64,000 bases of DNA from a candidate division WWE3 bacterium (GTDB taxonomy: Bacteria > Patescibacteriota > WWE3 > UBA101185 > UBA10185). The stretch lies in assembly GCA_012798115.1 (NCBI GenBank), contig JAAZNV010000007.1, forward strand, positions 25,586 through 89,585, written 5' to 3'. Shown here piece after piece: positions 27,460 to 64,000 of this stretch; position 1 is the stretch's first letter, and every line of letters begins with the position of its first letter. The translations under genes and the position numbers were made by a program. The notes beneath the pieces are model-generated. The model did not search any database. It was not told where the DNA came from and worked only from the letters and a program-made list of their open reading frames with translations.

Positions 27460-28680
27460 TTACTCAACCTCAAAAAACTTTCTTTTTCCAAATTTAACAA
27501 TTGTTCCTTTAGTAAAGTCTATTAGGATATATGGATCTGTTATCTTGTTTCCATTTACTTCTACCCCGCCTTGTTCAATTACTCTTTTTATTTCGCTTGA
27601 TGATAAGTCTGGATTGTAGACTTTCATAAAGTTAATAAGAGATGCAGGTGTATCAAGTTTAAGTTTGAGAATGTCAACTTTTATAGTGGCATCTTGTGAT
27701 ATATCTTTCTTTTGAATTGTTCTTTCAAAAAATTCCTCAGCTTTTCTTGCTTCCTTTTCACCTTTTATCATTTTTGTAATTTCAAAAGCCATAAGCTTCT
27801 TGTACTTCATTGGATTATCGTCTGCCTTTATTCTTTCTTGTATGTTCCATATTTCTTCAAGAGAAACATCAGTTAAAAGTCTTAAGCCTTTTAATATTAA
27901 TTCATCTGGATAAGACATTGCTTTTCCATATATATCTTCAGCTTTGTCACTTAAATTTATTCCGTTTCCTTTTGTCTTGCTCATGGTAGCAGTATCTGGA
28001 GCTTCCATAAGTTCATGTCCTCTAACAAATTTTTCTTTATTTCTCATTACTCTTGCTAGGTTTCTACCCATTAACATATTAAATATTTGGTCATTTCCTC
28101 CAATTTCAAGATCAACATTCATAAAAACAGAATCATAGCCTTGCATCAATGGATATATAAACTCTTGAAGTCCAACAGGAGTATTGCTTTTTAATTTTCT
28201 TTGGTACAAATCTCTTTCAAGCATTTGTTGTACTGTAGTTTTAGACATAAGTTCAATGATTTCTTTAAGATTAAGTTTAGATAACCATTCTGAATTTCTT
28301 TTGAATTGTGCTGGATTTTCTCCTTCAAAATCAATTAACTGTGCTGCTTGTTTCTTCCACCCATCCATATTTTTTAATATTTCTTCTTCACTCATTATCT
28401 TCCTGTCCTTTCCAATCTCTGGATCCCCGCAAATAGCTGTAAAATCACCAACTAAAAATATTACCTCATGTCCTAGTTGTTGAAGTATTCTCAATCCTCT
28501 TATTCCCATTGCATGTCCTATGTGGAGGTATGGACCAGATGGATCAAAGCCTTGGTAAGCTCTAATTCTTTCACCTGACATTAACTTTTCTCTTAGTGCA
28601 TCTACTGATGGAACTATGGTTTCAACACCCCTAGTTAAGAATTTTTCTATCAACCTTTCGTCTTTTAGAACTTTAGGCAT
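27460..28680 (-). CDS. tyrosyl-tRNA synthetase paralog (type 2, Thermus/TyrZ-like) with C-terminal S4 domain
   Basis: HIGH (YLHIGH), VGDFTAICGDP, KMSKS variant TMSKTKG, C-terminal S4 (SSSEIKRVIEQGGVEVNGNKITDPY); S4 domain argues against TrpRS. Confidence 0.7.
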   Translation of the reverse strand: MPKVLKDERLIEKFLTRGVETIVPSVDALREKLMSGERIRAYQGFDPSGPYLHIGHAMGIRGLRILQQLGHEVIFLVGDFTAICGDPEIGKDRKIMSEEEILKNMDGWKKQAAQLIDFEGENPAQFKRNSEWLSKLNLKEIIELMSKTTVQQMLERDLYQRKLKSNTPVGLQEFIYPLMQGYDSVFMNVDLEIGGNDQIFNMLMGRNLARVMRNKEKFVRGHELMEAPDTATMSKTKGNGINLSDKAEDIYGKAMSYPDELILKGLRLLTDVSLEEIWNIQERIKADDNPMKYKKLMAFEITKMIKGEKEARKAEEFFERTIQKKDISQDATIKVDILKLKLDTPASLINFMKVYNPDLSSSEIKRVIEQGGVEVNGNKITDPYILIDFTKGTIVKFGKRKFFEVE

Positions 28681-49695: not shown

Positions 49696-51882
49696 CTATT
49701 TGATATTGTACCAACCATAAGGAAATCTGCTTAATGAAACAGGTGTACTGTTATCTCCGTCTTTGCAGTGGTTTATTGGTCTTATCATTATATTCTGCCA
49801 GCTTTGGACATTTGCTAGAAACTCATGTCCATCATTTGATGTTTTGGATATCTTCCAAGGATAATTTCCTGTTCCATCATCTATTTTAATATCCACTTTG
49901 TCTGCTTCATATTGTGTCCAAGTTAAATTAATTCCACTTACTCCGTTTTCTATAGCAGAAGTCAAAAGTATCCATGTTGTTTCTGGTGGTTTGATCCAAT
50001 GACATCTTGAGTCTTCGTGAATCTCTTCACTTGAGCTGTCTTGTCCATACACTTGAATTCTGTTGTTAACTGGGTCCATAACATAAAGTCTTCCTTCAGC
50101 ATCCATTGCCATATGATAAGGTCCATGGTTAAATTCTTCATTATCACTACCAAATGTTCCAAAATACCCATCAGTAGGACCTCTTGACCCCATTTCTGCT
50201 AAATAAGTTCCACTGCTACTAAACTTTTGAATTCTAAAATTGTCTCTGTCTGATACGTATATGTACCCGTTGCTATCAGCTATTATCCCTAGAGGATTAT
50301 TTAATTCCCCTGCATCACTTCCACTTGAACCAAAATGAGAAACATACTCTCCTTCTAAGCTGAACTTTTGAACTCTATTGTTTAAACTATCGGTAACAAA
50401 AACGTTTCCGCTTGTATCTACAAAGACATCCATTGGTTTATTTAATTCTCCGTCGTTAGAACCGCTAGTTCCCCAGCTTCTAATAAATGTTCCTTCTTTG
50501 TCAAAAACTTGTACCCTATCATTATTTGTATCTGCTATGTAGATAATGTTATCAAAATCTATATGAATTCCGTTTGGCGTATCAAACTGTTCTTCTTCAG
50601 CACCATAAGTACCCCATTGTTTTATGAAAGTGCCGTTTGAACTAAACTTTTGAATTCTATTGTTTGCTCTATCAACTACATAAACGTTACCATCATTATC
50701 TGTATCAACATCAGCTGGCTCATCAAACTCTCCCTCACCAGATCCATAAGATCCCCATTTAGCTACATAATCACCATTGCTTTCCACTTTTTCAATTCTA
50801 TTATTGTTTGTATCTGCTACGTAGATGTATAAACTTCCATCTTTAGTCACCCCTACACCTGCTGGATAATTGAAACGACCATCTTCATCACTTGCTCCAT
50901 ACCCCTTACTTGCAAATTCATAATTAAATCCATTAAAAGCTTCAAAACGGTTATTTATACTGTCTATAACTATTATGTCTGCTCCACTCCAAGCTAATCC
51001 TCTTGGTTCATTGAAAAGACCATTACCGTCTCCAAAGCTACCAAAGTTATTAACATAATTACCTGTGGAAGATTCAAACTCTACTATCCTATTATTTCCT
51101 AAGTCGGAGACAAATAGTTGTCCCTCATCATTTACCTTTATACTATCTGGATCACTTAACGATCCTACTTCCCCGCCAAGATTACCTTCTCCTATTGTTT
51201 GAAGATGTGTTCCATCACTATCAAACTTTTGAATTCTATTATTACCACTATCAACAATGTAAATATTTCCAGAAGAATCTATATCAATTCCTCGTGGAAG
51301 ATTAAGTTCACTTTCCCCACTTCCTTGTGTTCCAAATTGGTCTTGATAACTACCATCTGAATCAAACTTTAGAACCCTGCTGTTATTTGTATCTACTACC
51401 CAAACGTTATCGTTCTCGTCTATTGCAATTCCTGTAGGGCCATTAAAATTAGTGTTTCCTGATCCAAGAGAACCCCATTTTGTAATAAAAGTTTCTCCAT
51501 TTGAAGAAAACTTTTGAACCCTGTTGTTTCCTGTGTCCGTGACATACACTTCACCTGCACTGTTAATTGCAATGTCTGTTGGGGAATCAAAAGCTCCATC
51601 TCCTGTTCCTAATCCTCCCCATGCTGATTCTACTACCCCGTCAAGTATCATCTGAATGGAGTTATTTCCTGTATCTACTACATAAATATGTCCATCAGAA
51701 CTAACTTCAATGCCTTTTGGTAGATAAAAGTTTTGGAGGATTTCTGGAATAGTGCGTAAAAAAGGCAATGGGTCATTTGCACTTGCAAGGGCTTTGTTTT
51801 GAAGGAAAGGTAAAAACAACAAAGAAACTACCAAGAGCTTAGAAAGATCAGAAACAATGTTTTTTCCTTTTTGGCTAAGCAT
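49696..51882 (-). CDS. secreted NHL-repeat (beta-propeller) protein with C-terminal FN3-like domain
   Basis: signal peptide; >10 repeats of D..GN.YV.D..NNRIQKF; C-terminal INLTWTQ block. Confidence 0.7.
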   Translation of the reverse strand: MLSQKGKNIVSDLSKLLVVSLLFLPFLQNKALASANDPLPFLRTIPEILQNFYLPKGIEVSSDGHIYVVDTGNNSIQMILDGVVESAWGGLGTGDGAFDSPTDIAINSAGEVYVTDTGNNRVQKFSSNGETFITKWGSLGSGNTNFNGPTGIAIDENDNVWVVDTNNSRVLKFDSDGSYQDQFGTQGSGESELNLPRGIDIDSSGNIYIVDSGNNRIQKFDSDGTHLQTIGEGNLGGEVGSLSDPDSIKVNDEGQLFVSDLGNNRIVEFESSTGNYVNNFGSFGDGNGLFNEPRGLAWSGADIIVIDSINNRFEAFNGFNYEFASKGYGASDEDGRFNYPAGVGVTKDGSLYIYVADTNNNRIEKVESNGDYVAKWGSYGSGEGEFDEPADVDTDNDGNVYVVDRANNRIQKFSSNGTFIKQWGTYGAEEEQFDTPNGIHIDFDNIIYIADTNNDRVQVFDKEGTFIRSWGTSGSNDGELNKPMDVFVDTSGNVFVTDSLNNRVQKFSLEGEYVSHFGSSGSDAGELNNPLGIIADSNGYIYVSDRDNFRIQKFSSSGTYLAEMGSRGPTDGYFGTFGSDNEEFNHGPYHMAMDAEGRLYVMDPVNNRIQVYGQDSSSEEIHEDSRCHWIKPPETTWILLTSAIENGVSGINLTWTQYEADKVDIKIDDGTGNYPWKISKTSNDGHEFLANVQSWQNIMIRPINHCKDGDNSTPVSLSRFPYGWYNIK

Positions 51883-52159
51883 TTGTAAACTAATTAACTA
51901 GCATATTAATGATATTCCAGCTTTAAGAAGTATGTCAATGTCCTGGGTTTTTAACAGTGAAAAGATATGATGGAGCACTCCAGTTATGAAGTACTCTATT
52001 CTCTAAGACATTGCTACAGTACAAAAGTAGTAATCCCTGCAGTTCGATGTTCATTTACTTCTTGAATGTTTGTTGTTTTCTTGGTGGCTTGAGATTTAAT
52101 AATCCTTGTTGTATTATTCGGGTATTCTAATACGGATCAACGTATAAAAAGGAGAGAAA

Positions 52160-52753
52160 ATGAAAAGGAAGGCAATAATGGGTTTGTCACTGCTGGTAGC
52201 TTTTATAATGTCGTGTACAACGCCCAAATCTGTTGTGGAGCTGGCTGTTCCAACGCCAATTCCGACACCACCTGTAGATCTTCCTATATGGCAGGAAGGT
52301 GTGTACATAAAGGATGATAGCGAAGTTGCACAAACTGATGCATTTGAGATTCATTTGATAACTATTTATGAAGATTTACCATTTTACGATGGTACTGTTC
52401 CTTTTGAGTTTGAAGCTTGGGAATTACCTTTGAATCCACCCTATAACCCGCTAAAGATGTTGTACATATTTGATAACTTTATAACATTCTTTTCCTACGA
52501 TGATCCAACTTCTGGTATCGCAAGTAGAGCTAGGACTTATGATAAAGCGAACGGGTTGTTGGCCGAGGCACAGCTTGAAGAAATCTTAGGAGACGGAACA
52601 GTTGTAATTTTGGAAGTGCACTACAACAAGGATGGTGAGATAATTTTTTGGTGTAGGAGCAGGATAGCCCCCATTTTAGGGTTTAAAGAGGAAGAGTTTG
52701 ATTCTCACGGTGTGAAAGAACAGGATTACTATTTTGTTTGGCCAGCTTACTAA
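52160..52753 (+). CDS. lipoprotein, hypothetical
   Basis: LLVAFIMSC lipobox. Confidence 0.5.
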   Translation: MKRKAIMGLSLLVAFIMSCTTPKSVVELAVPTPIPTPPVDLPIWQEGVYIKDDSEVAQTDAFEIHLITIYEDLPFYDGTVPFEFEAWELPLNPPYNPLKMLYIFDNFITFFSYDDPTSGIASRARTYDKANGLLAEAQLEEILGDGTVVILEVHYNKDGEIIFWCRSRIAPILGFKEEEFDSHGVKEQDYYFVWPAY

Positions 52754-52838
52754 AAGAGATAAACGCAAAAGGCTTAAGGGCATCCAACTACTAATGTTGT
52801 ATGCCCTTTAATTTAGTCCGTCTAAATGATTTCCTATC

Positions 52839-53306
52839 TTAGGTAGAAGGATGCTGATCTTCTGAACGGAAATCAATTATGGTCTTGGCAAACTCAACAA
52901 TGTCATCTATTACGACGTTTACTTTACCTGCTACGACTTGCCACCTTTTGTTACGAAAAACCCAGAACTTACTTACCTTCAAGTCATCGGCAAGAAGTGC
53001 TTCTCGTTCTTCTTGTACTGCTTCTTCAAAAGGTTTTTCGTTTTGAAGGATAAACCCCGCCATTTGAATGGCTATCCTTCTAGTGCATGTAATGTTTTCC
53101 CTACCACTGCGTAATTTACACTGATTGACGTTTGGACAGATAACCCTAGGTCTTGATAGAAAGTCTTCGGGGGTTTGCATTGTTTTATCGGTAAAGTCAA
53201 TATCGCAGGGACTCCCTTCATTAATCAATCTTATTGCTCTCATGCTACTCTCCTTATCTTTAGATATGTGTGAATTTTGCACTATTGTATCATAATCTAC
53301 AAACAC
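52839..53306 (-). CDS. hypothetical protein
   Basis: 155 aa ORF in GC-richer segment; no family recognised. Confidence 0.35.
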   Translation of the reverse strand: MFVDYDTIVQNSHISKDKESSMRAIRLINEGSPCDIDFTDKTMQTPEDFLSRPRVICPNVNQCKLRSGRENITCTRRIAIQMAGFILQNEKPFEEAVQEEREALLADDLKVSKFWVFRNKRWQVVAGKVNVVIDDIVEFAKTIIDFRSEDQHPST

Positions 53307-53559
53307 ACTTGTTTTAGTGGTAGGCCTTTTGCTGCTGTTTGGGTGCAGTGTTTGTCAATGATAAAAGTTGCTATGTGGCTGTTTTCTCTAGGATACGTAT
53401 GGTGGAGCACTCTGGTCGTTAAGTATTCTACTCTTTAGGGTAGAAATGAGACAAATGAGACAGTATGGCTCTGAACTGTCGATGTTAGAATAATAATAGT
53501 GCAGGTTGACGTTGGGTGGTATACTCCATTCAAAATAAATCGTGTGAAAGGAGTAGATC

Positions 53560-54198
53560 ATGTATATTGTTTTTGAGGGTATCATTGGTGCAGGTAAAAC
53601 CACTCAGTGTTTTAGATTGTCTCATTGGTTAGAGGATAAATTCCCAAAACTCCATGTGTTATGTACCCGCGAACCGGGTGGGGATGAGATAGCGGAGTCA
53701 ATCAGAGGGACTGTCCAAGGAACTCCATTTAAAGAACAGATGGATGCAACGTGTGAAGCTTATCTATATGCTGCTGCCAGGGCACAGAGTCTAAGGACGG
53801 TTGTTAAACCTCGTTTGGATTCCGGTTGGATTATCATTGCGGATAGAAGTTTTATTACTTCCCTGGTTTACCAGGGATATAATCGGGGAGTTGGAATTGA
53901 CACGATTCTAGACATAAACAAAGTTGCGGTTAGTGGTATACTTCCGGATCTGGTTTTGTTCCTTGACGCCAATGTACCAACTGCCTTGGGTCGTGCTCAC
54001 GACAAAGCGGGAGACAAATGGGAGAATCTTGGTGAGGATTTCTTTGTGAAGGCCAGAGAAGGATATATAAAAGTTTCTCATCTTTCCAACCTTTTTGGTA
54101 AGTGGGTAGGAATAGATGGAAATGGCACTGAGGATGAGGTATTCCAAAGAATCTTACAGGAAGTTACGCCTTTCATACATTCCAACGAGGGTGAGTAG
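53560..54198 (+). CDS. tmk: thymidylate kinase
   Basis: P-loop FEGIIGAGKTT, DRS/LID region; RBS AAAGGAG. Confidence 0.85.
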   Translation: MYIVFEGIIGAGKTTQCFRLSHWLEDKFPKLHVLCTREPGGDEIAESIRGTVQGTPFKEQMDATCEAYLYAAARAQSLRTVVKPRLDSGWIIIADRSFITSLVYQGYNRGVGIDTILDINKVAVSGILPDLVLFLDANVPTALGRAHDKAGDKWENLGEDFFVKAREGYIKVSHLSNLFGKWVGIDGNGTEDEVFQRILQEVTPFIHSNEGE

Positions 54199-54218
54199 TA
54201 TAAGTAAAACATTTGAAA

Positions 54219-54258
54219 ACCCCGAACTTTTCTATAGAGGAGTCTCGGGGTATTTTGT
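54219..54258 (+). terminator. putative Rho-independent terminator after tmk
   Basis: stem ACCCCGA/TCGGGGT followed by ATTTTGTT. Confidence 0.4.
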
Positions 54259-54291
54259 TCCTCATAACCATAAGTTTACGAGGTGAAATCT

Positions 54292-55002
54292 ATGTTAGTT
54301 TTCGATCCTAATGTAAGATGTAGTTCACTAATTAAAACAGGTGACTACATAGAGTCCTATCTTAAAGATACGGTTAATGTAAAGAGGTATATGGATTCAA
54401 GATACCCTGAAGGTATGGTTAGTGATAGGTTGTGTGATCATATTGTGAGATTAAGATTAATGGCTTTACATCTTCCCATGCCTTCTGAAGATAGAAAGCA
54501 AATCGATCGCATGATTATTGTGCATGATTTGCCGGAAATTGTTGTTGGTGATGTAACAGCAATAATAAAAAAAGAAAGGAGTTTAAGTACAGATGATGAA
54601 GTAGCTGTTGCAGAAAAAATGCTAAACGAGAGGGACTTTGCGTTATATAGCCAGTTTTCTCAAGCTGAAGACTATCTACTGGGCAACTCATTAGTAGCCT
54701 CGTGCGATAATGCTATTATTGCCAAAGTGTTAGATTCTCTTGAGGGTAGTATGTATTTTCACTACGCAATATCCAAATGGGCTAAAGCAGGTCAAATGCA
54801 ACTCCCACCAGGTTGCTCTATGGAATACTTCTTTGGAGTTGTCTTGGATGGATTTAAATGCAAGACGACAATCAAGCAAGAAACTGGAAACTTAGTTAAT
54901 GAACTGCTACTTTCTGCCTATAAGTACATTGAAAATCTGTGGGTTGGTTACGAACAAATAACCCCCGATGTGATTAAGAAAAGATTAAGTATGTATAAAT
55001 AA
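54292..55002 (+). CDS. HD-domain phosphohydrolase (YfbR-like 5'-deoxynucleotidase family)
   Basis: H...HDLPEIVVGDV HD motif; start at ATG 54292 after GAGGTGA RBS. Confidence 0.55.
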   Translation: MLVFDPNVRCSSLIKTGDYIESYLKDTVNVKRYMDSRYPEGMVSDRLCDHIVRLRLMALHLPMPSEDRKQIDRMIIVHDLPEIVVGDVTAIIKKERSLSTDDEVAVAEKMLNERDFALYSQFSQAEDYLLGNSLVASCDNAIIAKVLDSLEGSMYFHYAISKWAKAGQMQLPPGCSMEYFFGVVLDGFKCKTTIKQETGNLVNELLLSAYKYIENLWVGYEQITPDVIKKRLSMYK

Positions 55003-55016
55003 GGAGAGTGAACGAA

Positions 55017-55802
55017 ATGAAAATAATTCAACCTAAGGTATTTTTGATCGCCGAGCCGCATATTATGCGAGGTGAACTAGGCGAGTTTTTGAAACTTGTA
55101 GGTGCTCCGGAATGGCATACAGATGCTTCCTCAGACGCTGAGGAACTTTCGGAACTAATGGGTCGTGTGTGTTACCGAAGCTTTGCTCCCGGATTGAACC
55201 CGAATGTTACAAAAATTCGTGAGGGTAATGCACCTTATCTTGCAAACATAATTGAGCAGGAACACGGTTCAATTTTTGAACACTCACAACTTAGTTTCGT
55301 CTTTGCAAATATTTCAAGAGTGTTTACACACGAACTTGTTCGGCACCGTGTAGGTGTTGGAATCTCACAGGAAAGCCTGCGATATGTTCGTCTTGATAGT
55401 CTATCAGCGAGTATTCCAACGATAATCCAGGAAACTCCGGAAGCAATGACGATCTTCACAAGGACTTTTGAGTATCTTGAAAAACAACAGCGTGAACTTT
55501 CACAGGTCTTTAAGCTGGATAACCCGGAAACATCTTTTCACCAAAAGAAAAGAGCCACTTCGGCTATGCGAAGAATTGCGCCCATTGGTCTTGCTACATG
55601 CATTGGTTGGAGCGCCAACTTTCGAACTCTGCGTTGGGTATTGGAAAACAGAACACAACCAGCAGCCGAAGAAGAAATGCGCATAGTGTTTGGACAAGTT
55701 GGGGAGATTGTCACCAAGAGATACCCTAGCATCTTCTCTGATTTTACAGTTGAAAAAGTTGAAGGATTTGATTGGTATAAACCAGCTCACAGAAAAATTT
55801 AG
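55017..55802 (+). CDS. thyX: flavin-dependent thymidylate synthase ThyX
   Basis: ThyX motif RHRVGVGISQESLRY (RHRxxSxxxxSxRY); start at ATG 55017 after AAGGAGAG. Confidence 0.85.
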   Translation: MKIIQPKVFLIAEPHIMRGELGEFLKLVGAPEWHTDASSDAEELSELMGRVCYRSFAPGLNPNVTKIREGNAPYLANIIEQEHGSIFEHSQLSFVFANISRVFTHELVRHRVGVGISQESLRYVRLDSLSASIPTIIQETPEAMTIFTRTFEYLEKQQRELSQVFKLDNPETSFHQKKRATSAMRRIAPIGLATCIGWSANFRTLRWVLENRTQPAAEEEMRIVFGQVGEIVTKRYPSIFSDFTVEKVEGFDWYKPAHRKI

Positions 55803-55807
55803 TTATA

Positions 55808-55846
55808 ATGCCCGGATATTAAATAAAATCCGGGCATTTCTTTTTG
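55808..55846 (+). terminator. Rho-independent terminator after thyX
   Basis: 10-bp stem ATGCCCGGAT/ATCCGGGCAT followed by TTTCTTTTT. Confidence 0.7.
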
Positions 55847-55970
55847 ATAATTATCTAGCACAAACTTTATGGAGACGTTATTGGTACGATTAACAACCTC
55901 TATACTTACCTACTCTACAAGTTACTGGGTTGCGCAGTTGGGGTTAAGTTGGAACTGTTATAAACTCTAG

Positions 55971-56516
55971 CTATACCAGCAAATAATTCCACCCAGGTTT
56001 CCATGACTTTGTTTTTCTCCAATCTTGATTGAATGCTTCCTCCCAAGTTTTTCCTTTAAGAATAACCTCGAGTGCTAATTGAGGTGCCCTGTGTGCTACT
56101 ATTGCCACATTTTTTCCATCGTACTTTTTCTCTAACTCATTAAGGAATATCTCCATCCTCAATTTAACATCCTCGTAGCTTTCACCATTGGGAAATCTTT
56201 CTGTAATACATTTTTCCTGAATAGGTTCTACAATTCTGGAGGGCATTCCGTTGTAATCTCCGTAATTACATTCTCTCAACAACCACTCTTTAATAATTGG
56301 TACTCGATCTTTAAATGTTATTTCCGCTGATTTTACTGCTCTTTTGAGGTCAGAACAAAAGACTACATCAAACTTCTTGTCTTTTATTTGCTTCCTCAAA
56401 TCTATCGATTGTCTTACCCCTTTTTGTGATAACTCCGCATCCGACCACCCAGAGGAAACGTCATTTAGATTATCATTAGTAGTTCCATGTACAAAATATG
56501 TAATGTTTACTGACAT
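55971..56516 (-). CDS. histidine phosphatase (phosphoglycerate mutase-like) family protein, atypical VHG in place of RHG
   Basis: YFVHGTTNDN N-terminal motif and C-terminal VAHRAP; catalytic His present, conserved Arg replaced by Val. Confidence 0.55.
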   Translation of the reverse strand: MSVNITYFVHGTTNDNLNDVSSGWSDAELSQKGVRQSIDLRKQIKDKKFDVVFCSDLKRAVKSAEITFKDRVPIIKEWLLRECNYGDYNGMPSRIVEPIQEKCITERFPNGESYEDVKLRMEIFLNELEKKYDGKNVAIVAHRAPQLALEVILKGKTWEEAFNQDWRKTKSWKPGWNYLLV

Positions 56517-56606
56517 AGAGTAATTATACCTTGGTTCTAGATTGGTTGAAAAAGTACACAGGTTGAGAACTATTTTACACTCTAAGTTATTTAGAGAAAA
56601 TCCAAC

Positions 56607-57107
56607 TCACTTCCAAAGTGACTTAGAGCCTCTTTTAGGTGAATTTAGCCACTCTGCGTACATTATATCGTAGAACCAGTCATCAACGAATTTAACCTCT
56701 TCTTCTGCTAATGCTTTCCAATCTTGTTCTGGGTTCTTTTTCTCAGCCGTGTATACTGCAAGCTCCTTGAGTTTTTGCAACCTTTCCCCTTCCTGAAGGT
56801 TATATTTAATTGACGCCGTTACCCTGCCTATATTTTTTAGCTCCATCCATCTGTGCTGGTATGCTAGCTTAAGGGCATGCGCCTTCCCACCGGCAAAGGC
56901 TTTTTCTAAATTATCTCTTGTAATAAGTCCTGCAGCATAATCTAGAGTCATTTGTGATTTTCCAAGCTCCTCTAAAGACAGACATGCTAGAAAAAAAGCT
57001 CTCGCGAATCGTTCGTTTTCAGCTAATAATTTAGCCTCTAAAAGCAGATCTAGGGCGTTATTACGTGCCCTATTTGCTATACTCTCATAGTTTAGTTTAG
57101 TGCTCAT
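56607..57107 (-). CDS. AbiV-like abortive-infection family protein (HEPN-like)
   Basis: ARAFFLACLSLEELGKSQ resembles AbiV family core (FLA..A.EE.GK); start moved to internal Met after implausible hydrophobic leader. Confidence 0.4.
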   Translation of the reverse strand: MSTKLNYESIANRARNNALDLLLEAKLLAENERFARAFFLACLSLEELGKSQMTLDYAAGLITRDNLEKAFAGGKAHALKLAYQHRWMELKNIGRVTASIKYNLQEGERLQKLKELAVYTAEKKNPEQDWKALAEEEVKFVDDWFYDIMYAEWLNSPKRGSKSLWK

Positions 57108-57538
57108 GTAGTCATTATAATCTCTAAGATATAAAATGAGATAAACAAGACAGTAAAAGATTAAAATTAATGTAGTCACGGTGGTTAAATTTATTTTTGC
57201 AAATTAATAATAGTGGTAATATTTGCCTATGGAATCCACCGCTAGTACTATGCTTACGGATGCTATAATATCTGGAGCTATTCAAGCGGTTTACTTTGTA
57301 GCAACAAAACTTTGGTATCTATGGGTATCTGCTATCATTATTATATTCTTCGATATTAAATACTCAACTCAGCCGCGTAAACGTAAAATTGTACGATTAA
57401 TAGTATTGGCCCTTCTGTTCGTTTATTGCTTTATCATTATCTATGTTCCATATATCCAGCGCCACTATTTTGTTAAATGAAGTTTCATCAAGCTGTCAAA
57501 GGATATTTGAGGCACAGAGGTCACTTAGGTGCCCTGTA

Positions 57539-57621
57539 TGGTGGGCGAGAGAGGACTCGAACCTCCACCCTTTCGGATACGGTCCTAAGCCGTACGCGTA
57601 TGCCAATTCCGCCACTCGCCC
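57539..57621 (-). tRNA. tRNA-Leu (anticodon TAG), class II with long variable arm
   Basis: acceptor GGGCGAG/CTCGCCC, anticodon loop CTTAGGA, T-loop GGTTCGAGTCC, encoded CCA. Confidence 0.85.
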
Positions 57622-57672
57622 TAGGTTATTTGATTATATTAAAAAGAGGCTCATATTACGAGCCTCTTCTTG

Positions 57673-58239
57673 TTAACTAGCAAATTGAACTTCAGATCCT
57701 GCTTGCCTGAAGCTATCAATCTTATTAATAAAGAAAGTAACTCCATTTCTCCAGTTAATATAGTTTGGAGGTGTATAAATAGGAGCTATCTTCTCAGGAG
57801 TATCAAGTCCTTTCTCAAGGTAGTTTTCTTTTATACCTTTTGCTACTGTCTCAATAGCTTCATCATAAGATTTAAAGTAAATTGCATTATTTCCATATAT
57901 ACCCCATCCAAATGGATTATATGAACCTTCAATTAATTTCTTTCCGCAAGAAGACTCCATACAAGAAATAGCAGGTAATAGTTTATAATCAAGGCTATAC
58001 TTATCTGCTACGTCAACAAATGTTTCAGCATTGGCTTTTAATGGAGATTTAAATTCATCAAAAAACTTCTCCAAAGCTTCTATTCTATCTTTTCTACTTC
58101 TTTCTATTTGTCTATCTAGAACTTCTATAGAAACCTCATTTTGCTTGCTTTTAGCAGCAACATTGGATGTTGCAGTTGCAAGATAAACAAGGATAAATGG
58201 TAGTATATTAACTTGTAGTATTAGACCTTTCTTAGTCAT
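57673..58239 (-). CDS. secreted GH73-like (FlgJ/AcmA-type N-acetylglucosaminidase) peptidoglycan hydrolase
   Basis: signal/anchor; AISCMESSCGKK (cf. GH73 AxAALESGWGKS), YNPFGWGIYG (cf. NNLFGIK), FKSYDEAIETV, YTPPNY (cf. YATDPNY). Confidence 0.5.
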   Translation of the reverse strand: MTKKGLILQVNILPFILVYLATATSNVAAKSKQNEVSIEVLDRQIERSRKDRIEALEKFFDEFKSPLKANAETFVDVADKYSLDYKLLPAISCMESSCGKKLIEGSYNPFGWGIYGNNAIYFKSYDEAIETVAKGIKENYLEKGLDTPEKIAPIYTPPNYINWRNGVTFFINKIDSFRQAGSEVQFAS

Positions 58240-58310
58240 ACAAGGGTAAATACTAACATAAAATTAATGTTTTATCAACTGCTATAGGATGAGAGAAGAA
58301 TGAGGTTTGA

Positions 58311-59171
58311 TTAAATTACAGTAAGGTAAACACCTGCAATTATCAAAATTGAAGCAACAATCTTTTTTAAAGGATCTTTCTTTTCATTCATAAAAATATA
58401 GGAAAGCAGTACATTTAGAAATATTCCTACTGCTTGAAGAGGTACTATGGTGGTAATTTTACCTAATTGAAAAGATCTTAAAGAAAAAATAATTAAAAGT
58501 CCCCAACTTAAGCTCATTAACCAACAGTATTTTTTGTTGCTAAGTTTATACTCAGTCAAAAGTTCTGAGGGTTTAATTCTTTCAGCAGCTAGAATAAACA
58601 TTGAAGGAACTATTAAAGTAATAGCTATATAGATAGGAAGGTTAAACTGAGGTGATATTCCAATATCTATAGATACTGCAATTGCATAGGCTATAGTTGA
58701 TAGTATTCCCATTACAATATACTTGTTTATTTCAAATTTATTTCCTTTGTACAAGACAATGAAGTTACTAAGAAGTATTAAAACTCCTCCAACCATTTTT
58801 AATGGTGAAATAGACTCATGAAAAACAAGAAGCCCTATTATTATTAGAAAGACGCTTGAAAGTTCCCCAATTATAGATATCAACGATACTTCAATATGTT
58901 TTCTTGAGGTGGTTTGAAGTCTATCGTTTATTGCATAGAAAATGCAAGACACCAAGAGTAGTATTACCGTTCTTAGACTAATTGAAAAATTGTATTTAAA
59001 CAAAGGAGATATAAGTAACAATATAAGCCCAGCCATCATCTGTAGCATTGCCGTAACAGCCCCATCATTTTTTGCATTCCTTACAGCTAGTTTATAAAAA
59101 GGAGCAAATATAACTACACATAGCAAATAAGCAACTACATTAAATTGCCAAGTGTTTACCAGATTAAACAT
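58311..59171 (-). CDS. EamA/DMT-family transporter
   Basis: 286 aa, 10 TM helices in 5+5 arrangement. Confidence 0.55.
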   Translation of the reverse strand: MFNLVNTWQFNVVAYLLCVVIFAPFYKLAVRNAKNDGAVTAMLQMMAGLILLLISPLFKYNFSISLRTVILLLVSCIFYAINDRLQTTSRKHIEVSLISIIGELSSVFLIIIGLLVFHESISPLKMVGGVLILLSNFIVLYKGNKFEINKYIVMGILSTIAYAIAVSIDIGISPQFNLPIYIAITLIVPSMFILAAERIKPSELLTEYKLSNKKYCWLMSLSWGLLIIFSLRSFQLGKITTIVPLQAVGIFLNVLLSYIFMNEKKDPLKKIVASILIIAGVYLTVI

Positions 59172-59178
59172 AGTTTAT

Positions 59179-59976
59179 TTAATTGCTTTCTGGACTTTTG
59201 TAATTTTTTATAATATCTGCAAAATGATTTACTCCTTCACACCATGATCCATCAGATGGTGGTGTATATGTCTTCATTATCTCACATGTGTTTGTTATAC
59301 CTTTTGAAAAAAACTTAGTTGAAAGATACTTTGATACAGTTTCTATGCCTCTTGCCCAGTTGTCAAATGAAAATGTTATATCTCCATACACTGCCCACCC
59401 CCATGCATTATATGTTTCCATCCCATTTACCTTGGGAGTGTTTTTTCCACAGCTTGATTCTTGAAAAGCAATGGAAGCTACTAACCACCATGGTATATTG
59501 TTTTTATCTGCTTCATACACAAATACATCTCCCATTCCTTCAAGAGGACAATTAAACATTTTAAACACTTCATTTATCTTTTGAGCTCTTGAATCTTTTG
59601 AATAAATTGTTGTTGTTGATTGTGAAAGAACAAGAGGTCTAGATGAATAAATAGCATATTTTGTTGTGTCTTGTGGCTTAGCCTTTTGAGGAGTAACCAT
59701 TAAGGTTATTAAGAAAGAAAATATAAAAACTACAGAAACAGAAGCCCATACTGTAGTTACATTTTTGCTTATTGTATTAGGTTTTATTCTTGACTTAACT
59801 TTTGAGATTAAACTTTCTTTAGTTAGAGTGATTACACTTGTAGATTGTATTTCAATAAGTGAGGTTAAAGTATCTTTTTTACGATTAGTCTTTTCCAACC
59901 ATTCTTTTTTAGGTTCTTTTAGTTTTAGCTTCTTGCCATTTTTATAGAAACATTTTCTAGAAATACTTGATTCCAT
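59179..59976 (-). CDS. membrane-anchored GH73-like peptidoglycan hydrolase (paralog of 57673..58239)
   Basis: ASIAFQESSCGKN, YNAWGWAVYG, FDNWARGIETV, YTPPSD blocks shared with paralog. Confidence 0.5.
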   Translation of the reverse strand: MESSISRKCFYKNGKKLKLKEPKKEWLEKTNRKKDTLTSLIEIQSTSVITLTKESLISKVKSRIKPNTISKNVTTVWASVSVVFIFSFLITLMVTPQKAKPQDTTKYAIYSSRPLVLSQSTTTIYSKDSRAQKINEVFKMFNCPLEGMGDVFVYEADKNNIPWWLVASIAFQESSCGKNTPKVNGMETYNAWGWAVYGDITFSFDNWARGIETVSKYLSTKFFSKGITNTCEIMKTYTPPSDGSWCEGVNHFADIIKNYKSPESN

Positions 59977-60291
59977 ATTGTTAGGTTACATTACCATATG
60001 TATTAAAAATTATTCAAGATGACAAATGTACACACTGCGAATGAATAAATTAACCGCCTTTGGTAAAGAAAGGCAGCTACTTGTTTTTACTTGTACATAT
60101 GCATATTTATACCAATTTCTTTTATCTTTTGACACAATGTATCAGATAAGTTTAAAAGTTACAAAGGTTTAAAGCAGAAATACGTTAACTGATTGGTCTA
60201 AATATTTTTTATTAACCTGCGTTAGCAGATGGTATTTATAGTTCCCAGCACCTACTGCGTTTTTAGCAACTGGTACACCACCTACAAGACT

Positions 60292-61377
60292 TTATCCTGT
60301 TATATTAAGCAATTGTGGAAAGGAGTATACATTTGGTCTGATTCCTGACCCTTTTTCTTCTAGATTTATAACAATACTGGTTAACTTTCTTAAAATATCT
60401 TTTGCAGTACTATCATTAATTTTAGTTTGTCTAATGAACTGAGATGTATTGAAATATGGATAAGAGAATATAAAGTCTAGAACTTTAATGTTATATTTTG
60501 AATTAGTTAGCCGGGCAATCTCTTCTTTTTTCTGGTTGTATAGTAAGTGGATACCTTTGGCTTTCTCAATATTAATTTGTGATTGTTCAATTACTGCACG
60601 TAAAAAGTAAGCAATCCAGCTATTCCAATCTCCTTTTTGAGAAATGTTAAGTAATTTTAGATAATATTCATCTCTGTTCCTTTCAAAGAAGGAACTAAGA
60701 TAAAACATTGGAGTTGAGAGTACCTTCTTGTAGTATAAGAACAATGGCATTATTATTCTTCCCACTCTACCATTGCCATCCCAAAACGGATGAATAATTT
60801 CAAATTGAGCATGGATAATTGCTAGTTGAACCAATGGATCTTTTTCCTCTATGTGTATATATGACTCAAAATTAGAAAAATACTTAGGTACTTCCTTCGC
60901 TTCAGGAGGAATAAATTTAGCCTCTTGAATTGTGGTACCTGCTTTGCCTATATAAACTCGCCCAGATCTAAACTCACCTAATATACCTGTGTTGGACCTC
61001 ACATCGGATAGTAGTATTTTATGAATTTCTTTTATAAGTCGAGCACTTAATGGTATTTCATCTAGTTTAGATGTTGCATACATTAAAGCCTTACGGTAGT
61101 TTAGTACTTCTTTTATATCTTCCCTCTTCTCTTCGAACTTCTTAGGATTTGCTTCATACTCCAATACCTCTTCTAAGGATGCTTGTGTTCCTTCAATCTT
61201 TGACGAAACAACAGCCTCTTGAGTAGTTAACGGAGATAACAACACTTTGGGGTTTGGGATTCCCTGGAGTAGTCCATCAAACTCTGCTATTCTAGCTCTA
61301 GCATTTCCAATAAGAGGTATAAATTCTACCCAATTCAAATCTTTAAGCGGAAGATTTTCTGGCATGAAAGCTTGCAT
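60292..61377 (-). CDS. Fic-family protein (class II, N-terminal SxxxEG inhibitory motif) with C-terminal wHTH-like region
   Basis: Fic motif HPFWDGNGRVGR; N-terminal VSSKIEGT inhibitory-helix motif. Confidence 0.85.
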   Translation of the reverse strand: MQAFMPENLPLKDLNWVEFIPLIGNARARIAEFDGLLQGIPNPKVLLSPLTTQEAVVSSKIEGTQASLEEVLEYEANPKKFEEKREDIKEVLNYRKALMYATSKLDEIPLSARLIKEIHKILLSDVRSNTGILGEFRSGRVYIGKAGTTIQEAKFIPPEAKEVPKYFSNFESYIHIEEKDPLVQLAIIHAQFEIIHPFWDGNGRVGRIIMPLFLYYKKVLSTPMFYLSSFFERNRDEYYLKLLNISQKGDWNSWIAYFLRAVIEQSQINIEKAKGIHLLYNQKKEEIARLTNSKYNIKVLDFIFSYPYFNTSQFIRQTKINDSTAKDILRKLTSIVINLEEKGSGIRPNVYSFPQLLNITG

Positions 61378-61464
61378 ATGCCAATTGTATCATTTTCGGA
61401 TTTGACAAGGATATAAACCTCTTGGTCGAATCTGGAAAGCGATTGGCATATCATCCTTACCGTG

Positions 61465-62112
61465 CTACTTTGTTAGTTGCATTTTGTTTAAGAATTCGTT
61501 GAAATCATGCTTTGGCAAGACTTTCTCTACTTGATCTAAAAACCCTGATAAGTCACTGTTTAGGTAATACTCTAAGAAAGTGTCTATTCCTAATGTGTCT
61601 ACCACTTTTGCTAGTTCTGCTGTTTCAGTACTATATGCTGTCATTATTGAATAAACAGAGCTTTTGCTCTCCAAAGTACTTACAATGTTTCTAACAATAG
61701 CAGAAACCTTAGGTTTTATTTCCTTGGAGTTTACAGGCCCTATATCTTTTAAGAATGGGGTAGCAATTTCTGTTAAGAGTGTAGCAGCTACTTCATCGAT
61801 GTTTTTAGGTATAACATTAATATATAAATCTAAATCCTTTTCTTTTTCTTCCTTAATACTAAAACCATGAGCTAAGTACTCCTTTTCTTCTCCCATTTCG
61901 TCTAGCATTCTAATCGTCCTTCCTTTGGTAATAGCATGCATGATCTCATGGGTAAGAAAACCACCAGACTTAATATTTACTTGGTTTTCTATAACATTTG
62001 TTTCCTTGTTTGTTATTCCCTCGTTGCTATACTCAAGTACTATTGTTGAGGGCTGTTCTTGTTTGTTTAAGATTGTTACTGCTGCTATATTTGATTCAAT
62101 AGGGTTAACCAC
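61465..62112 (-). CDS. hypothetical protein with HExxH zinc-metallopeptidase motif
   Basis: GGFLTHEIMHAITKG; 215 aa; directly upstream of Fic gene in same orientation. Confidence 0.4.
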   Translation of the reverse strand: MVNPIESNIAAVTILNKQEQPSTIVLEYSNEGITNKETNVIENQVNIKSGGFLTHEIMHAITKGRTIRMLDEMGEEKEYLAHGFSIKEEKEKDLDLYINVIPKNIDEVAATLLTEIATPFLKDIGPVNSKEIKPKVSAIVRNIVSTLESKSSVYSIMTAYSTETAELAKVVDTLGIDTFLEYYLNSDLSGFLDQVEKVLPKHDFNEFLNKMQLTK

Positions 62113-62123
62113 CCCATGGTGTT

Positions 62124-62660
62124 TTAGATATCAGGGAAGCTACTGCCATCTAGAACAAGAACTTTTATGTTCTTCTGGTTAGGTGAAAGTTTAATATCAA
62201 ATATATTTTCTATTGTGTTAATCTTCTTGTCACTTTCTTCTTGTACTTTTTCTATTGCTAATGTTAAGTTGTTCTTACATCTTTCATAGATGTTCCAGGC
62301 ATAGAGCGGATCTATGCTAATCTTCTTGGTCTCTTCTTTTATTATTGTGTTATAGATATGCCTATTGTTCATCCTATCAAATGTGATTATCTCGTCTGAA
62401 AGTATATAAGAAAACAAGTCTTTATCCTCAAAGCCACATCTTGATATTCTAAGTAGTTTATCCGTGCAAGTAGCTATATTTGGCCATAGTAAAGATTCTT
62501 CTTTATCTTTCTTAAAATCTTCAAATCTTTCACTAAATTTCTTATAATCTGCTCTAGATTCCTTCTTTATTACTTCAGTATTCCTTCCAATAGGAAAGCT
62601 GTCAAAGCTATAAAGATCATTAGAAATTGGTAATTTTTCTGAGTTGCTTATTCCTTTCAC
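62124..62660 (-). CDS. hypothetical protein
   Basis: 178 aa, first gene after tRNA-Pro, 11-nt gap to HExxH gene. Confidence 0.35.
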   Translation of the reverse strand: MKGISNSEKLPISNDLYSFDSFPIGRNTEVIKKESRADYKKFSERFEDFKKDKEESLLWPNIATCTDKLLRISRCGFEDKDLFSYILSDEIITFDRMNNRHIYNTIIKEETKKISIDPLYAWNIYERCKNNLTLAIEKVQEESDKKINTIENIFDIKLSPNQKNIKVLVLDGSSFPDI

Positions 62661-62724
62661 AATAACAATTATAGGTGTGTATCTTTTTACTACAATAAGT
62701 AGATTGTTTAAGAGATGATGTTTA

Positions 62725-62801
62725 TGGTCGGGGTGACAGGACTTGAACCTGCGACCTCACGGTCCCAAACCGTGCGCTCTAGCCAACTGAGCTACACCCC
62801 G
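62725..62801 (-). tRNA. tRNA-Pro (anticodon TGG)
   Basis: acceptor CGGGGTG/CACCCCG, anticodon loop TTTGGGA, T-loop GGTTCAAGTCC, encoded CCA. Confidence 0.9.
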
Positions 62802-62829
62802 TATTTTAGTATTCTACTATAAAAACAAC

Positions 62830-63516
62830 TTAAAAGAAGTTGATCCACTCATTTAAGATAATATCAAATGGATTTGACTCATATTCATCTCTAACATTAT
62901 GCATAAGATCAATGACATGTACTTTTACTGTATAAGTGCATAATTGATCTTTAGAACAAATTGGAGTTATGCTGTCCTTCTTGCTAATATTTCTGGAAAA
63001 CTCTGAAATTACAAAAACATCATTATCAATGAAGTAAGCTCTATCAAAATAACAATTTGCTCTTACTGAACAATCAAGAATTCTTGCATCAATAATCTTA
63101 TCTTCTTTTAGCCCATATAATCTTACTTGATTTGAAAGGATGTCTTCCCTATCTATGTTTCTATAATCTACAAAAATTTTTTCGCTTGGAGAAAATGCTA
63201 CTTTTTTAATATCTTTATGAGCATTAATAACACTTTCAAATTCTTCTTTTTTTCCTATCTCGTCAATAGAACTTACTGTCATCCATGTAGTATTATAGAT
63301 TTCGTTAGATTCTTTTAGTTTAAATTCATCTGCTTCTATATTTAATCCCTTGTTCTTTAAATTAGTAATCCATCTTTGAAACATCCTGTCATTTTCAACA
63401 TCAGTAGGAAGTTTTGATTTATCAACTGCTTTTTCTTGCTTTATATTAGAAAAAACTCCAATTGCTATGGATGTGAATATTAAAACTATAATTAAAACAT
63501 CAATATGTTTCTTCAT
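62830..63516 (-). CDS. membrane-anchored hypothetical protein
   Basis: track ORF starts at TTG; first Met gives MKKHIDVLIIVLIFTSIAIGV signal-anchor. Confidence 0.4.
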   Translation of the reverse strand: MKKHIDVLIIVLIFTSIAIGVFSNIKQEKAVDKSKLPTDVENDRMFQRWITNLKNKGLNIEADEFKLKESNEIYNTTWMTVSSIDEIGKKEEFESVINAHKDIKKVAFSPSEKIFVDYRNIDREDILSNQVRLYGLKEDKIIDARILDCSVRANCYFDRAYFIDNDVFVISEFSRNISKKDSITPICSKDQLCTYTVKVHVIDLMHNVRDEYESNPFDIILNEWINFF

Positions 63517-63581
63517 ACAGTAATAATACCTCATTGATAGTAAGTGTTTAAATTCCAAGTTATAATTTAGGTACAATATCA

Positions 63582-64000
63582 ATGAATAGAATGCTTGAAC
63601 ACATAGAAAGAAAACTACCTTTAGCAGAGCTTGTGTCCTTGCTTTTGTTTCTTGTTTTTGTTCCCTTAATACAAAAAGTAAATTTTATGCAAAATGATGA
63701 TTGGAATAGAACCACCAGCGTAATTAGGTTCTTACATGGAGATTTTTCTTTAATTCAAAAAACAGCAACTACTTTTTACACTCAAGGAATTTTAGGGTGT
63801 TTGTTTTCACTTGTCTTTGGATGGAAGAAGCTTCCTTTTTTAACCTTATTATTTTCCGTCTTAAATTTTTACTTATTAATGAAGATACTGCTGAATCATT
63901 CTAATCTAAGTAAAATAAAATCTTGTATCTTGTCTCTTCTTTTATTTTTTACTCCTCTTCATATGTATTCATCAATTGGATTTATGACAGAAAACTATAC
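63582..64000 (+). CDS. integral membrane protein, partial (runs off window)
   Basis: ATG 63582, frame open to window end; hydrophobic segments LVSLLLFLVFVPL, GILGCLFSLVFGW, LLFSVLNFYLLMKILL. Confidence 0.4.
   Translation, partial: MNRMLEHIERKLPLAELVSLLLFLVFVPLIQKVNFMQNDDWNRTTSVIRFLHGDFSLIQKTATTFYTQGILGCLFSLVFGWKKLPFLTLLFSVLNFYLLMKILLNHSNLSKIKSCILSLLLFFTPLHMYSSIGFMTENY

Follow-up and report, generated by a model that had tools for sequence, protein, structure and literature searches.

Three genes read from the same strand of a candidate division WWE3 bacterium contig raise the question of whether two peptidoglycan hydrolase paralogs and the transporter gene between them act together as a module for cell-wall degradation and uptake, as a sequence-only reading had proposed. 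The window that we analyzed is a stretch of 64,000 nucleotides (64 kb), and the three open reading frames and their common strand were recovered exactly as first described, with gene C (59179..59976, 265 aa), gene B (58311..59171, 286 aa) and gene A (57673..58239, 188 aa) all on the minus strand. The B start follows the C stop codon after a gap of 7 nt, and 71 nt separate B from A. Each of the three genes was found to be under purifying selection when compared to close relatives (dN/dS 0.10-0.14), and the comparison of B with its counterpart in the closest related locus, L005, gave a dN/dS of 0.097. A tRNA-Leu(UAG) gene identified by ARAGORN and Rfam (57539..57621, minus strand) lies directly downstream of A and was treated as a neighbor outside the C-A pair. 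A terminator-like hairpin was also read from the sequence 3' of A (57641..57668, minus strand; AAGAGGCTC, loop gtaatat, GAGCCTCTT, TTT), and it was absent from the list produced by a simple terminator scan.

Paralogy and GH73 assignment of genes A and C

We assessed the relationship between the two outer genes by direct and profile-based comparison. A and C share 32% identity over 139 aa (BLASTP; E=1e-24), and their family alignments matched each other with a probability of 99.8 (hhalign; E=2.7e-30). The proposed paralogy of the two proteins was thus borne out, and the shared blocks ESSCGK, YNxxGWxxYG and YTPP were all located. A is 100% identical to an NCBI entry named 'glucosaminidase domain-containing protein [candidate division WWE3 bacterium]'.

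An HMM search with the glucosaminidase model PF01832 had been suggested as a check on the GH73 assignment, and its outcome was mixed. The single-sequence scan returned 21 bits for A (E=5.6e-4), under the gathering score of 30.2 bits, and no match for C. At E<=0.01, the model matched 33 of 40 A-type sequences (best 1.7e-6) and 7 of 43 C-type sequences (best 2.6e-5), which is consistent with the assignment yet below the cut-off, and a precomputed PF01832 assignment was present for a few homologs. Because the single-sequence Pfam and NCBIfam matches were sub-threshold, family profiles and structure were relied on instead. The A-family profile matched the PDB entries 8yxk (E=4.2e-12) and LytB (E=1.9e-5), with a lower score for the LytB E585Q chain, while the C-family profile matched no solved structure among the PDB sequences; the link from C to GH73 therefore rests on its hhalign match to A and on fold searches. 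In the Foldseek search with the A model, the top 23 matches were all GH73 enzymes. The predicted fold is lysozyme-like alpha+beta and can be superposed on solved GH73 domains, and FlgJ, Auto, AtlA, AtlE, Acp and TM0633 share this fold and the position of the catalytic Glu with A and C at lower similarity. When a wider set of 149 representatives was scored against both domain profiles, 147 were nearer to A, in a set that had itself been retrieved with the A profile. The 'NrN' chains 9lq9/a/c were weakly similar in their C-terminal part (YTPxS..W..G; E=0.11), and no relevant literature turned up under their PDB codes. Sequence profiles, predicted fold and conserved catalytic Glu together support A and C as divergent yet recognizable GH73 wall hydrolases, one of which is already so named in NCBI. 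The outcome that had been named as refuting the assignment, a missing GH73 match together with an unrelated fold, did not occur.

Active-site motifs, cysteines and membrane topology

Both proteins carry the E-(S/T)-x-x-G motif where the core helix ends. In A, ESSCGK occupies residues 95-100 (57940..57957, minus strand), with E95 as the predicted catalytic general acid flanked by C93 and C98; in C it occupies residues 173-178 (59443..59460, minus strand), with E173 as the predicted general acid aligned to E95. This Glu aligns with the ...sihEtgnG segment of 8yxk and with Glu585 in the ...salEsnwGr segment of LytB. C93, E95, S96 and C98 are invariant among 120 homologs of A, as are E173, S174, C176, G177 and K178 among 43 sequences of the C family, and across the 149 representatives of the wider superfamily E95, S96, N108 and G111 are invariant. 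The second block is YNPFGWGIYG in A (residues 107-116; 57892..57921, minus strand), with N108 to G113 and G116 invariant in the A family, and YNAWGWAVYG in C (residues 189-198; 59383..59412, minus strand), the counterpart of the GH73 NNxFG motif, with N190, W192, G193 and Y197 invariant.

The third block corresponds to the GH73 YATD motif, in which the Tyr is retained (Y155 in A, Y237 in C) and the Asp is replaced, giving YTPP. In A this block spans residues 155-158 (57766..57777, minus strand), is invariant in the family and aligns with aPlYdsP...W of 8yxk; in C it spans residues 237-240 (59257..59268, minus strand), with Y237, T238 and P239 invariant. Y155 was retained in 144 and W163 in 147 of the 149 superfamily representatives. 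The Asp of YATD is only partly required in LytB and is dispensable in AtlWM (PMC4633669). In several other solved GH73 enzymes a beta-hairpin lobe contributes a further acidic residue, whereas the corresponding region here (~100-122) is short, and the sole conserved acidic residues are D126, E127 and E130.

The cysteine substitutions that had been pointed out are real, clade-specific and strictly paired. Positions 93 and 98 co-occur as Cys in 120/120 A orthologs and positions 65, 98, 149 and 164 in 120/120 C orthologs, while in other branches of the superfamily position 98 is F, with either other Cys pairs or none. Because they are clade-specific and strictly paired, these cysteines are probably structural disulfide staples around the active-site loop and not a sign of altered chemistry, as judged from Cys co-occurrence. 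The expected bonds would be C93-C98 in A and two pairs among C143, C176, C231 and C246 in C.

The description of both proteins as secreted or anchored is reasonable, given an N-terminal hydrophobic segment in A and a transmembrane (TM) segment after a basic tail in C. From hydropathy, A has a single hydrophobic segment at residues 5-23, followed by a GH73-like domain at ~50-180, and in its AF2 model the segment is helical and the domain has pLDDT >90. A may instead be cleaved and released, with 'SNVAA/K' as a putative signal-peptidase site, which would let it act away from the cell, on a host wall for instance. C has type-II membrane topology: a basic tail in the cytoplasm (residues 1-73; 19 K/R versus 7 D/E) leads into a TM helix, a juxtamembrane stretch that is conserved and then the GH73-like domain at ~128-262, the linker from membrane to domain being only ~30 residues long. 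The TM helix covers residues 76-94 (59695..59751, minus strand; Kyte-Doolittle maximum 2.41; helix 71-94 in the model), and W77, S79 and S81 in this region are conserved in part. Near its N-terminus, the tail carries a conserved cytoplasmic motif, F10-x-K-N-G14-K-x-L (59926..59949, minus strand), with F and G present in 39 of 42 relatives and no match to a known family. A Pfam DUF6161 match to the C tail (21 bits, below cut-off) and a DUF4969 match were rejected as spurious because they occurred in only 1 of 43 and 1 of 40 members, respectively.

We compared these features to those of characterized GH73 systems. The Ecd09610 glucosaminidase domain (GH73, PF01832; PDB 8yxk) comes from a Clostridioides difficile prophage endolysin, where it is a soluble domain of a multidomain enzyme with an NlpC/P60 endopeptidase; it is phage-encoded, has no membrane anchor and has no Cys flanking the Glu (ETGNGS), whereas A and C, with ESSCGK, are stand-alone, membrane-tethered, chromosomal and duplicated. 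LytB of Streptococcus pneumoniae (PDB 4q2w, 7pj3) is a GH73 N-acetylglucosaminidase that functions in daughter-cell separation, and it differs from A and C in its choline-binding repeats for targeting, its extra SH3b/WW modules, its secretion without a TM anchor, and its ESNWGR and YATD motifs in place of ESSCGK and YTPP. SagB of Staphylococcus aureus (PDB 6u0o) shares its architecture with A and C, namely one TM helix near the N-terminus and, after it, a GH73 domain outside the cytoplasm; hydropathy and models place the helix at residues 5-23 in A and 76-94 in C. SagB acts on nascent glycan strands at the membrane surface in complex with SpdC (bioRxiv 10.1101/2020.05.21.109470), and by analogy it offers the best functional model for the two WWE3 proteins. 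It is among the fold matches of both A and C but a weaker one (Foldseek E 0.04-0.12); it requires a polytopic CAAX-protease-like partner and, unlike A and C, it is not in a tandem paralog pair. No CAAX-protease-like (SpdC) gene recurred beside the C-A pair in the neighborhoods of related loci.

Conservation of the pair and insertion of the transporter gene

C and A form an adjacent pair that is conserved across bacteria of the WWE3 candidate phylum. Wherever upstream sequence was available, in 51 related loci, C precedes A on the same strand, nearly always directly adjoining it, and the pair keeps the same chromosomal neighborhood of housekeeping genes in relatives down to 42% identity. The wider family of small anchored GH73 proteins comprises ~3,200 clusters (50% identity, E<=1e-3) of metagenomic origin, mostly from bacteria labeled as Patescibacteria, and most members fall below the Pfam cut-off and are labeled hypothetical.

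The assignment of B as a 10-TM EamA/DMT transporter between A and C agrees with our results. B matches Pfam EamA (PF00892; E=3e-12) in two repeats, and its hydropathy profile has nine clear hydrophobic segments and one weaker one, which fits 10 TM helices; two EamA repeats and ~10 TM helices are features that B has in common with EamA/DMT transporters. It is identical to an NCBI 'DMT family transporter [candidate division WWE3 bacterium]', and its NCBIfam matches, to phn_DUF6 and to 2A78 carboxylate/amino acid/amine transporter models, were weak and far under the cut-offs. The sugar-transport family PF06800 is recorded for some B homologs, while B itself has no match to it.

An EamA gene between C and A was encountered only in the window and in L005, and the other 49 distinct relatives for which upstream sequence exists lack it there. 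In other lineages, unrelated genes occupy the C-A spacer. The nearest other B homologs, at ~55% identity, come from other Patescibacteria groups, and none of the three contexts examined had a GH73-like neighbor. B is therefore best read as a recent lineage-specific insertion into the C-A spacer, and its functional coupling to A and C in a wall-scavenging module is not supported. It is probably co-transcribed with C.

A retains its own promoter downstream of B. The promoter block (58250..58288, minus strand) reads CCTATAGCAG, TTGATA (-35), 17 nt, a TG-extended TAGTAT (-10), 10 nt and ATG, with no Shine-Dalgarno sequence between the -10 and the ATG; it is promoter-like by its match and is conserved in the alignment. 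The element CCTATAGC at this promoter was noted as a putative regulator site. CCTATAG occurs at the equivalent place in 28 of 54 related loci, and in the 64-kb window it was observed once, compared to 6.7 expected occurrences.

Roles considered for the pair

We favor, with a probability of about 0.6, the reading that A and C are anciently duplicated membrane-tethered GH73 peptidoglycan glycosidases that remodel the WWE3 cell's own wall. Their catalytic domains would point outward from the cytoplasmic membrane, and the enzymes would most likely be endo-beta-N-acetylglucosaminidases whose general acid is the invariant Glu in the loop E-S-S-C-G-K, equivalent to Glu585 of LytB. Catalysis is probably substrate-assisted, since there is no conserved second carboxylate at the YATD position. 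Most likely the pair would trim or free newly made glycan strands, split the septum, or do both. An own-wall role is suggested because the proteins are held at the membrane, because their genes are core in the class and keep their synteny across it, and because the genome provides for peptidoglycan synthesis of its own. The cytoplasmic tail of C could receive a spatial or temporal signal. Adjacency of the genes may hint at cooperation between A and C, and the separate promoter of A argues against strict co-expression of the two.

Several other roles were weighed against this own-wall reading. That A and C attack a host or environmental wall while B imports the released amino sugars or muropeptides into an episymbiont would fit the close packing of three same-strand genes (gaps of 7 nt and 71 nt), the purifying selection on all of them, the PF06800 signature in some B homologs and the reduced biosynthesis of Patescibacteria. 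The proposed module nevertheless dissolves on comparison of relatives, and we regard it as very unlikely: in 49 other distinct relatives no transporter separates A from the C gene upstream of it, the ~55% homologs of B sit in unrelated contexts without GH73 neighbors, unrelated genes fill the same spacer in other lineages, A keeps its promoter downstream of B, and B has no PF06800 match. To our knowledge, the known importers of muropeptides and amino sugars are AmpG (MFS), Opp/Mpp (ABC) and the PTS proteins MurP and NagE, not DMT proteins, and we know of no characterized DMT member that imports muropeptides. Without any role for the transporter, A and C could still be offensive enzymes, released or displayed at a contact site to thin the wall of a host bacterium. 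Several points suit such a role: among solved structures an endolysin domain is the nearest relative, a PHROG endolysin family was matched, A could be cleaved and released, and Patescibacteria are frequently epibionts (PMC12102498). It is unlikely all the same, given that C is clearly an integral type-II protein with its domain ~30 residues from the membrane, that the pair belongs to the core genes and keeps its synteny with housekeeping genes, and that no secretion-system genes adjoin it. The genome also encodes a PBP of its own (a class A PBP in the 64-kb window), so that hydrolases for its own wall are needed.

A role in making space for a trans-envelope machine (a type IV pilus, a competence system or a T4SS), modeled on FlgJ, CwlT and PrgK, was also considered. 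FlgJ is a GH73 enzyme among the fold matches, and a type IV pilus cluster is present in the window (PilM at 17980..19011), but this cluster is 40 kb from the pair and pilus or T4SS genes adjoin the pair in 0 of 54 related loci, making this role highly doubtful. A CwlT-type role in a T4SS was rejected, as no T4SS genes flank the pair, and a paper on Patescibacteria T4SS names peptidoglycan hydrolases in its reference list only. It is extremely improbable that A and C are prophage or mobile-element endolysin remnants instead of cellular genes. Among solved homologs the best match is to a domain of a prophage endolysin (PMC9405191), and Fic, AbiV and tRNA genes lie nearby; against this, the chromosomal neighborhood is constant in relatives down to 42% identity, a scan of IMG/VR viral contigs found no relatives of the pair, and the membrane-anchor architecture and purifying selection also speak against such an origin. 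The Fic gene and ORFs of no known function near the pair are insertions relative to the related locus L001, in which a gene of family fam4 abuts C.

A more elaborate version of the own-wall reading is speculative and improbable. C and A would form a two-component, membrane-tethered, WWE3-specific glucosaminidase machine in which C is positioned or switched through its cytoplasmic tail motifs (F-x-K-N-G-K-x-L, then I-T-S-L-F) and A is expressed from a leaderless promoter with a unique CTATAG-containing operator, the two jointly releasing or splitting peptidoglycan without the usual autolysin regulators. If true, this would be a minimal and previously undescribed coupling of cytoplasmic cell-cycle cues to wall cleavage.

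On its own, the finding matters little, and it illustrates that an apparent operon logic read from one genome can reflect a recent insertion. What is worth keeping is that small anchored GH73 enzymes form a large family with poor annotation. Within WWE3, this family is represented by a strictly conserved tandem whose two paralogs diverged anciently and of which one has a conserved cytoplasmic tail. The two are therefore candidates for core autolysins in a class that has not been cultivated and in which cell division is poorly understood.

Gene layout and surroundings

The GH73-like paralogs A and C, and the EamA/DMT transporter B encoded between them, were recovered with exactly the limits proposed in the sequence-only reading, all on the minus strand: C at 59179..59976 (265 aa), B at 58311..59171 (286 aa) and A at 57673..58239 (188 aa). 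The C stop codon lies 7 nt from the B start and the B stop codon 71 nt from the A start. A is followed by a hairpin with a T-run (57668..57641), after which comes tRNA-Leu(UAG) (57539..57621). The motifs listed in that reading were all found (ESSCGK, YNPFGWGIYG/YNAWGWAVYG and YTPP), and A and C, with 32% identity over 139 residues (E=1e-24) and a profile-profile probability of 99.8 (E=2.7e-30), are, as judged by these alignments, homologs well beyond chance. A possesses a single N-terminal hydrophobic segment (residues 5-23). In C, a basic tail of 73 residues (19 K/R vs 7 D/E) precedes a TM helix (76-94), an arrangement that should place the C domain outside the membrane. B belongs to the EamA/DMT family (PF00892, E=3e-12), with two repeats and approximately ten hydrophobic segments. 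NCBI proteins of candidate division WWE3 bacterium that are 100% identical to A and B are named 'glucosaminidase domain-containing protein' and 'DMT family transporter', respectively.

The window (GC 31-40%) encodes trigger factor and type IV pilus proteins, with a PilM-containing pilus gene block at 17980..19011 (+), and a 728-aa NHL-repeat beta-propeller protein (49696..51882, -). The region 52000..63600 looks variable, with GC up to 0.40 at 52-56 kb. It encodes thymidylate kinase (53560..54198), ThyX (55008..55802), an AbiV-type HEPN protein (56607..57179, -), a Fic/DOC protein (60292..61377, -), two ORFs without a family (61465..62112 and 62124..62660, -), a histidine phosphatase and an HD-domain protein. 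Because fam4, a 250-aa protein gene at 62830..63582, directly abuts C in the related locus L001, the Fic gene and the two ORFs without a family are read as insertions. It was also noted that a T-box leader (112 bits; 1839..2082, -) precedes an AstE/AspA-like deacylase gene (839..1777, -) and not an aminoacyl-tRNA synthetase gene, with a second EamA-family transporter immediately upstream (2228..3295, -). The genes of two class-I tRNA-synt_1b proteins, TyrRS-like and each with an S4 domain, are separated by 21 kb (5189..6427 and 27460..28680, both -); in a small genome, a synthetase gene appears to have been duplicated.

GH73 membership, catalytic residues and cysteines

As a single sequence, A scored 21 bits against PF01832 (cut-off 30.2) and C gave no score. 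A profile built from 40 A orthologs matched a GH73 glucosaminidase domain of known structure (8yxk; E=4.2e-12) that belongs to the C. difficile endolysin Ecd09610 and is lytic in experiment (PMC9405191). The profile also matched pneumococcal LytB (E=1.9e-5), with the LytB E585Q chain scoring lower. Of the family members, 33/40 of A type and 7/43 of C type matched PF01832. The Glu of ESSCGK aligned with the motif holding the catalytic Glu in Ecd09610 and in LytB, and it was invariant across the A-type (n=120), C-type (n=43) and wider representative (n=149) sequences. Since GH73 profiles match at the family level and the catalytic Glu is invariant, the GH73 interpretation first made from the sequence stands, and A and C are almost certainly GH73-type peptidoglycan glycosidases. 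In the block corresponding to YATD, both retain the Tyr and have the Asp replaced (YTPP). For LytB, Glu585 alone is essential and a substrate-assisted mechanism has been proposed (PMC4633669); by analogy, the simplest reading would be the same mechanism for A and C.

The Cys substitutions remarked on in the sequence-only reading are real, but the co-occurrence counts mark them as a feature of the clade and not of the family. When P0001-P0240 and P0361-P0509 were aligned to the A profile, C93 and C98 stood on either side of the Glu in 120/120 A orthologs, and four Cys (A-equivalent positions 65, 98, 149 and 164) were present in 120/120 C orthologs. Members of the wider superfamily usually have Phe at position 98, corresponding to the ESGWG aromatic; the Cys pairs of other branches differ, with (99,109), for example, seen in 31/149, and 51/149 carry no Cys. 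The strict co-occurrence in pairs within extracytoplasmic domains points to probable disulfide staples. The clade-specific sets comprised (93,98), (65,98,149,164), (99,109), (78,85), (94,166), a lone 156, or none, and it looks from the alignment as though staples round the active-site loop were invented independently and repeatedly.

An exhaustive profile search, clustered at 50% identity, returned 3,179 clusters at E<=1e-3, of which 1,292 remained at E<=1e-10 and 187 at E<=1e-30. Proteins of 165-240 aa made up most of the best 150 clusters, with the matched domain mostly preceded by an N-terminal stretch. E95, S96, N108 and G111 (A numbering) were invariant among the wider representatives (n=149), and Y155 and W163 nearly so. 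The C-terminal stretch YTPxS..W..G (A 140-174, C 222-259) showed a weak likeness to PDB 'NrN' chains 9lq9, 9lqa and 9lqc (E=0.11-0.5); no paper on these chains turned up in the literature searched.

The C-A pair across related genomes

One genome per GTDB species was scanned, yielding 50 loci, with two more places taken from metagenome assemblies, and A, B and C were searched against all recovered loci by tblastn. Each of the 51 loci having upstream sequence carried a C ortholog in the same orientation as the A ortholog and upstream of it, typically with a spacer of ~60-250 nt; the other three were cut at a contig end. This pairing was the sole constant feature; neighbours that recurred often without being fixed were tig-clpP, a few kb downstream (44-45.4 kb in the window), and, immediately upstream, a VIT1-like membrane protein. 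Because cross-paralog identity (28-40%) was below ortholog identity (42-89%) in every genome, the duplication is older than the divergence of all sampled genomes.

The window and its closest relative, L005 (identity A 89%, B 91%, C 89%), were the only loci with B between C and A; in L001 (A 82%), the spacer was 87 nt without a transporter. The best B homologs outside this lineage reached only ~55% identity (labelled Microgenomates, Gottesmanbacteria, Woesebacteria and Saccharimonadales), and no GH73-like gene was found in three of their genomic contexts. On this comparative evidence, B was inserted recently into the C-A spacer. Purifying selection acts on all three genes (dN/dS 0.10-0.14), and B may plausibly be co-expressed with C in this lineage. 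Unrelated ORFs were also observed in the spacer of a few lineages (L024 2193..2612, L052 967..1683 and L053 5370..6065), and the L035 A ortholog (4000..4926) has an N-terminal extension of 120 residues.

B is inserted upstream of a conserved A promoter element (58250..58288, -), and the spacer seems to tolerate insertions at that side. The element consists of CCTATAG(C/T)nn, a TTGnnn -35, 17 nt and a TG-extended -10 (TGnTAnnAT). Because the -10 lies only 6-10 nt from the ATG, without a Shine-Dalgarno sequence, the A mRNA would be leaderless or nearly so. CCTATAG, with its palindromic core CTATAG, may be an operator; it occurs once in the 64-kb window vs 6.7 expected, and at the same spot in 28/54 related loci (L001, L003, L005-L018, L020, L022, L025, L027, L028, L033, L034 and others). 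C has conserved features of its own that are absent from A: a cytoplasmic N-terminal motif F-x-K-N-G-K-x-L (59926..59949, -; F and G in 39/42 sequences), a second tail motif (I/V)(T/S)S(L/I)F ~25 residues later, and an extracellular juxtamembrane segment (59590..59690, -) with conserved P96..P101, Y-x-I-Y-S-S-K-P-L and D128-S-R130. These tail and juxtamembrane motifs gave no known-family match.

Proposed role of the pair

A class A PBP carrying a Big_7 Ig-like domain at its C terminus is encoded in the window (29192..31921, +), so the organism builds its own peptidoglycan. We favor own-wall housekeeping, at a probability of roughly 0.6. A and C are probably active, membrane-tethered enzymes at the outer face of the organism's own membrane, with a bond specificity that we infer to be endo-beta-N-acetylglucosaminidase. 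Their most likely task would be to trim nascent glycan strands or set them free, to split the peptidoglycan of the septum, or both. In function they are best compared with SagB, which acts as a complex with SpdC and combines one TM helix with a GH73 domain (bioRxiv 10.1101/2020.05.21.109470), and with LytB, the pneumococcal enzyme of daughter-cell separation. A and C may cooperate, and regulation may act through the C tail.

An attack of A and C on a host wall, with the transporter uninvolved, is unlikely. The sequence-only reading had tentatively joined hydrolases and transporter in a 'degrade and import' module for scavenging; the confinement of B to two of the compared loci, and three homolog contexts lacking a GH73-like gene, leave a dedicated module unsupported and that proposal quite improbable, and the proposed module is an artefact of looking at one genome. 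Slightly less probable still is that A and C serve as hydrolases in machine assembly. That they are a prophage remnant is very improbable; no relatives were found among IMG/VR viral contigs.

The GH73 enzymatic family is already known, and A is so named in NCBI. Modestly new are the finding that two ancient paralogs form a strictly conserved tandem in WWE3, the motifs in the C tail, the dedicated A promoter element, and how large this under-annotated branch of GH73 is.
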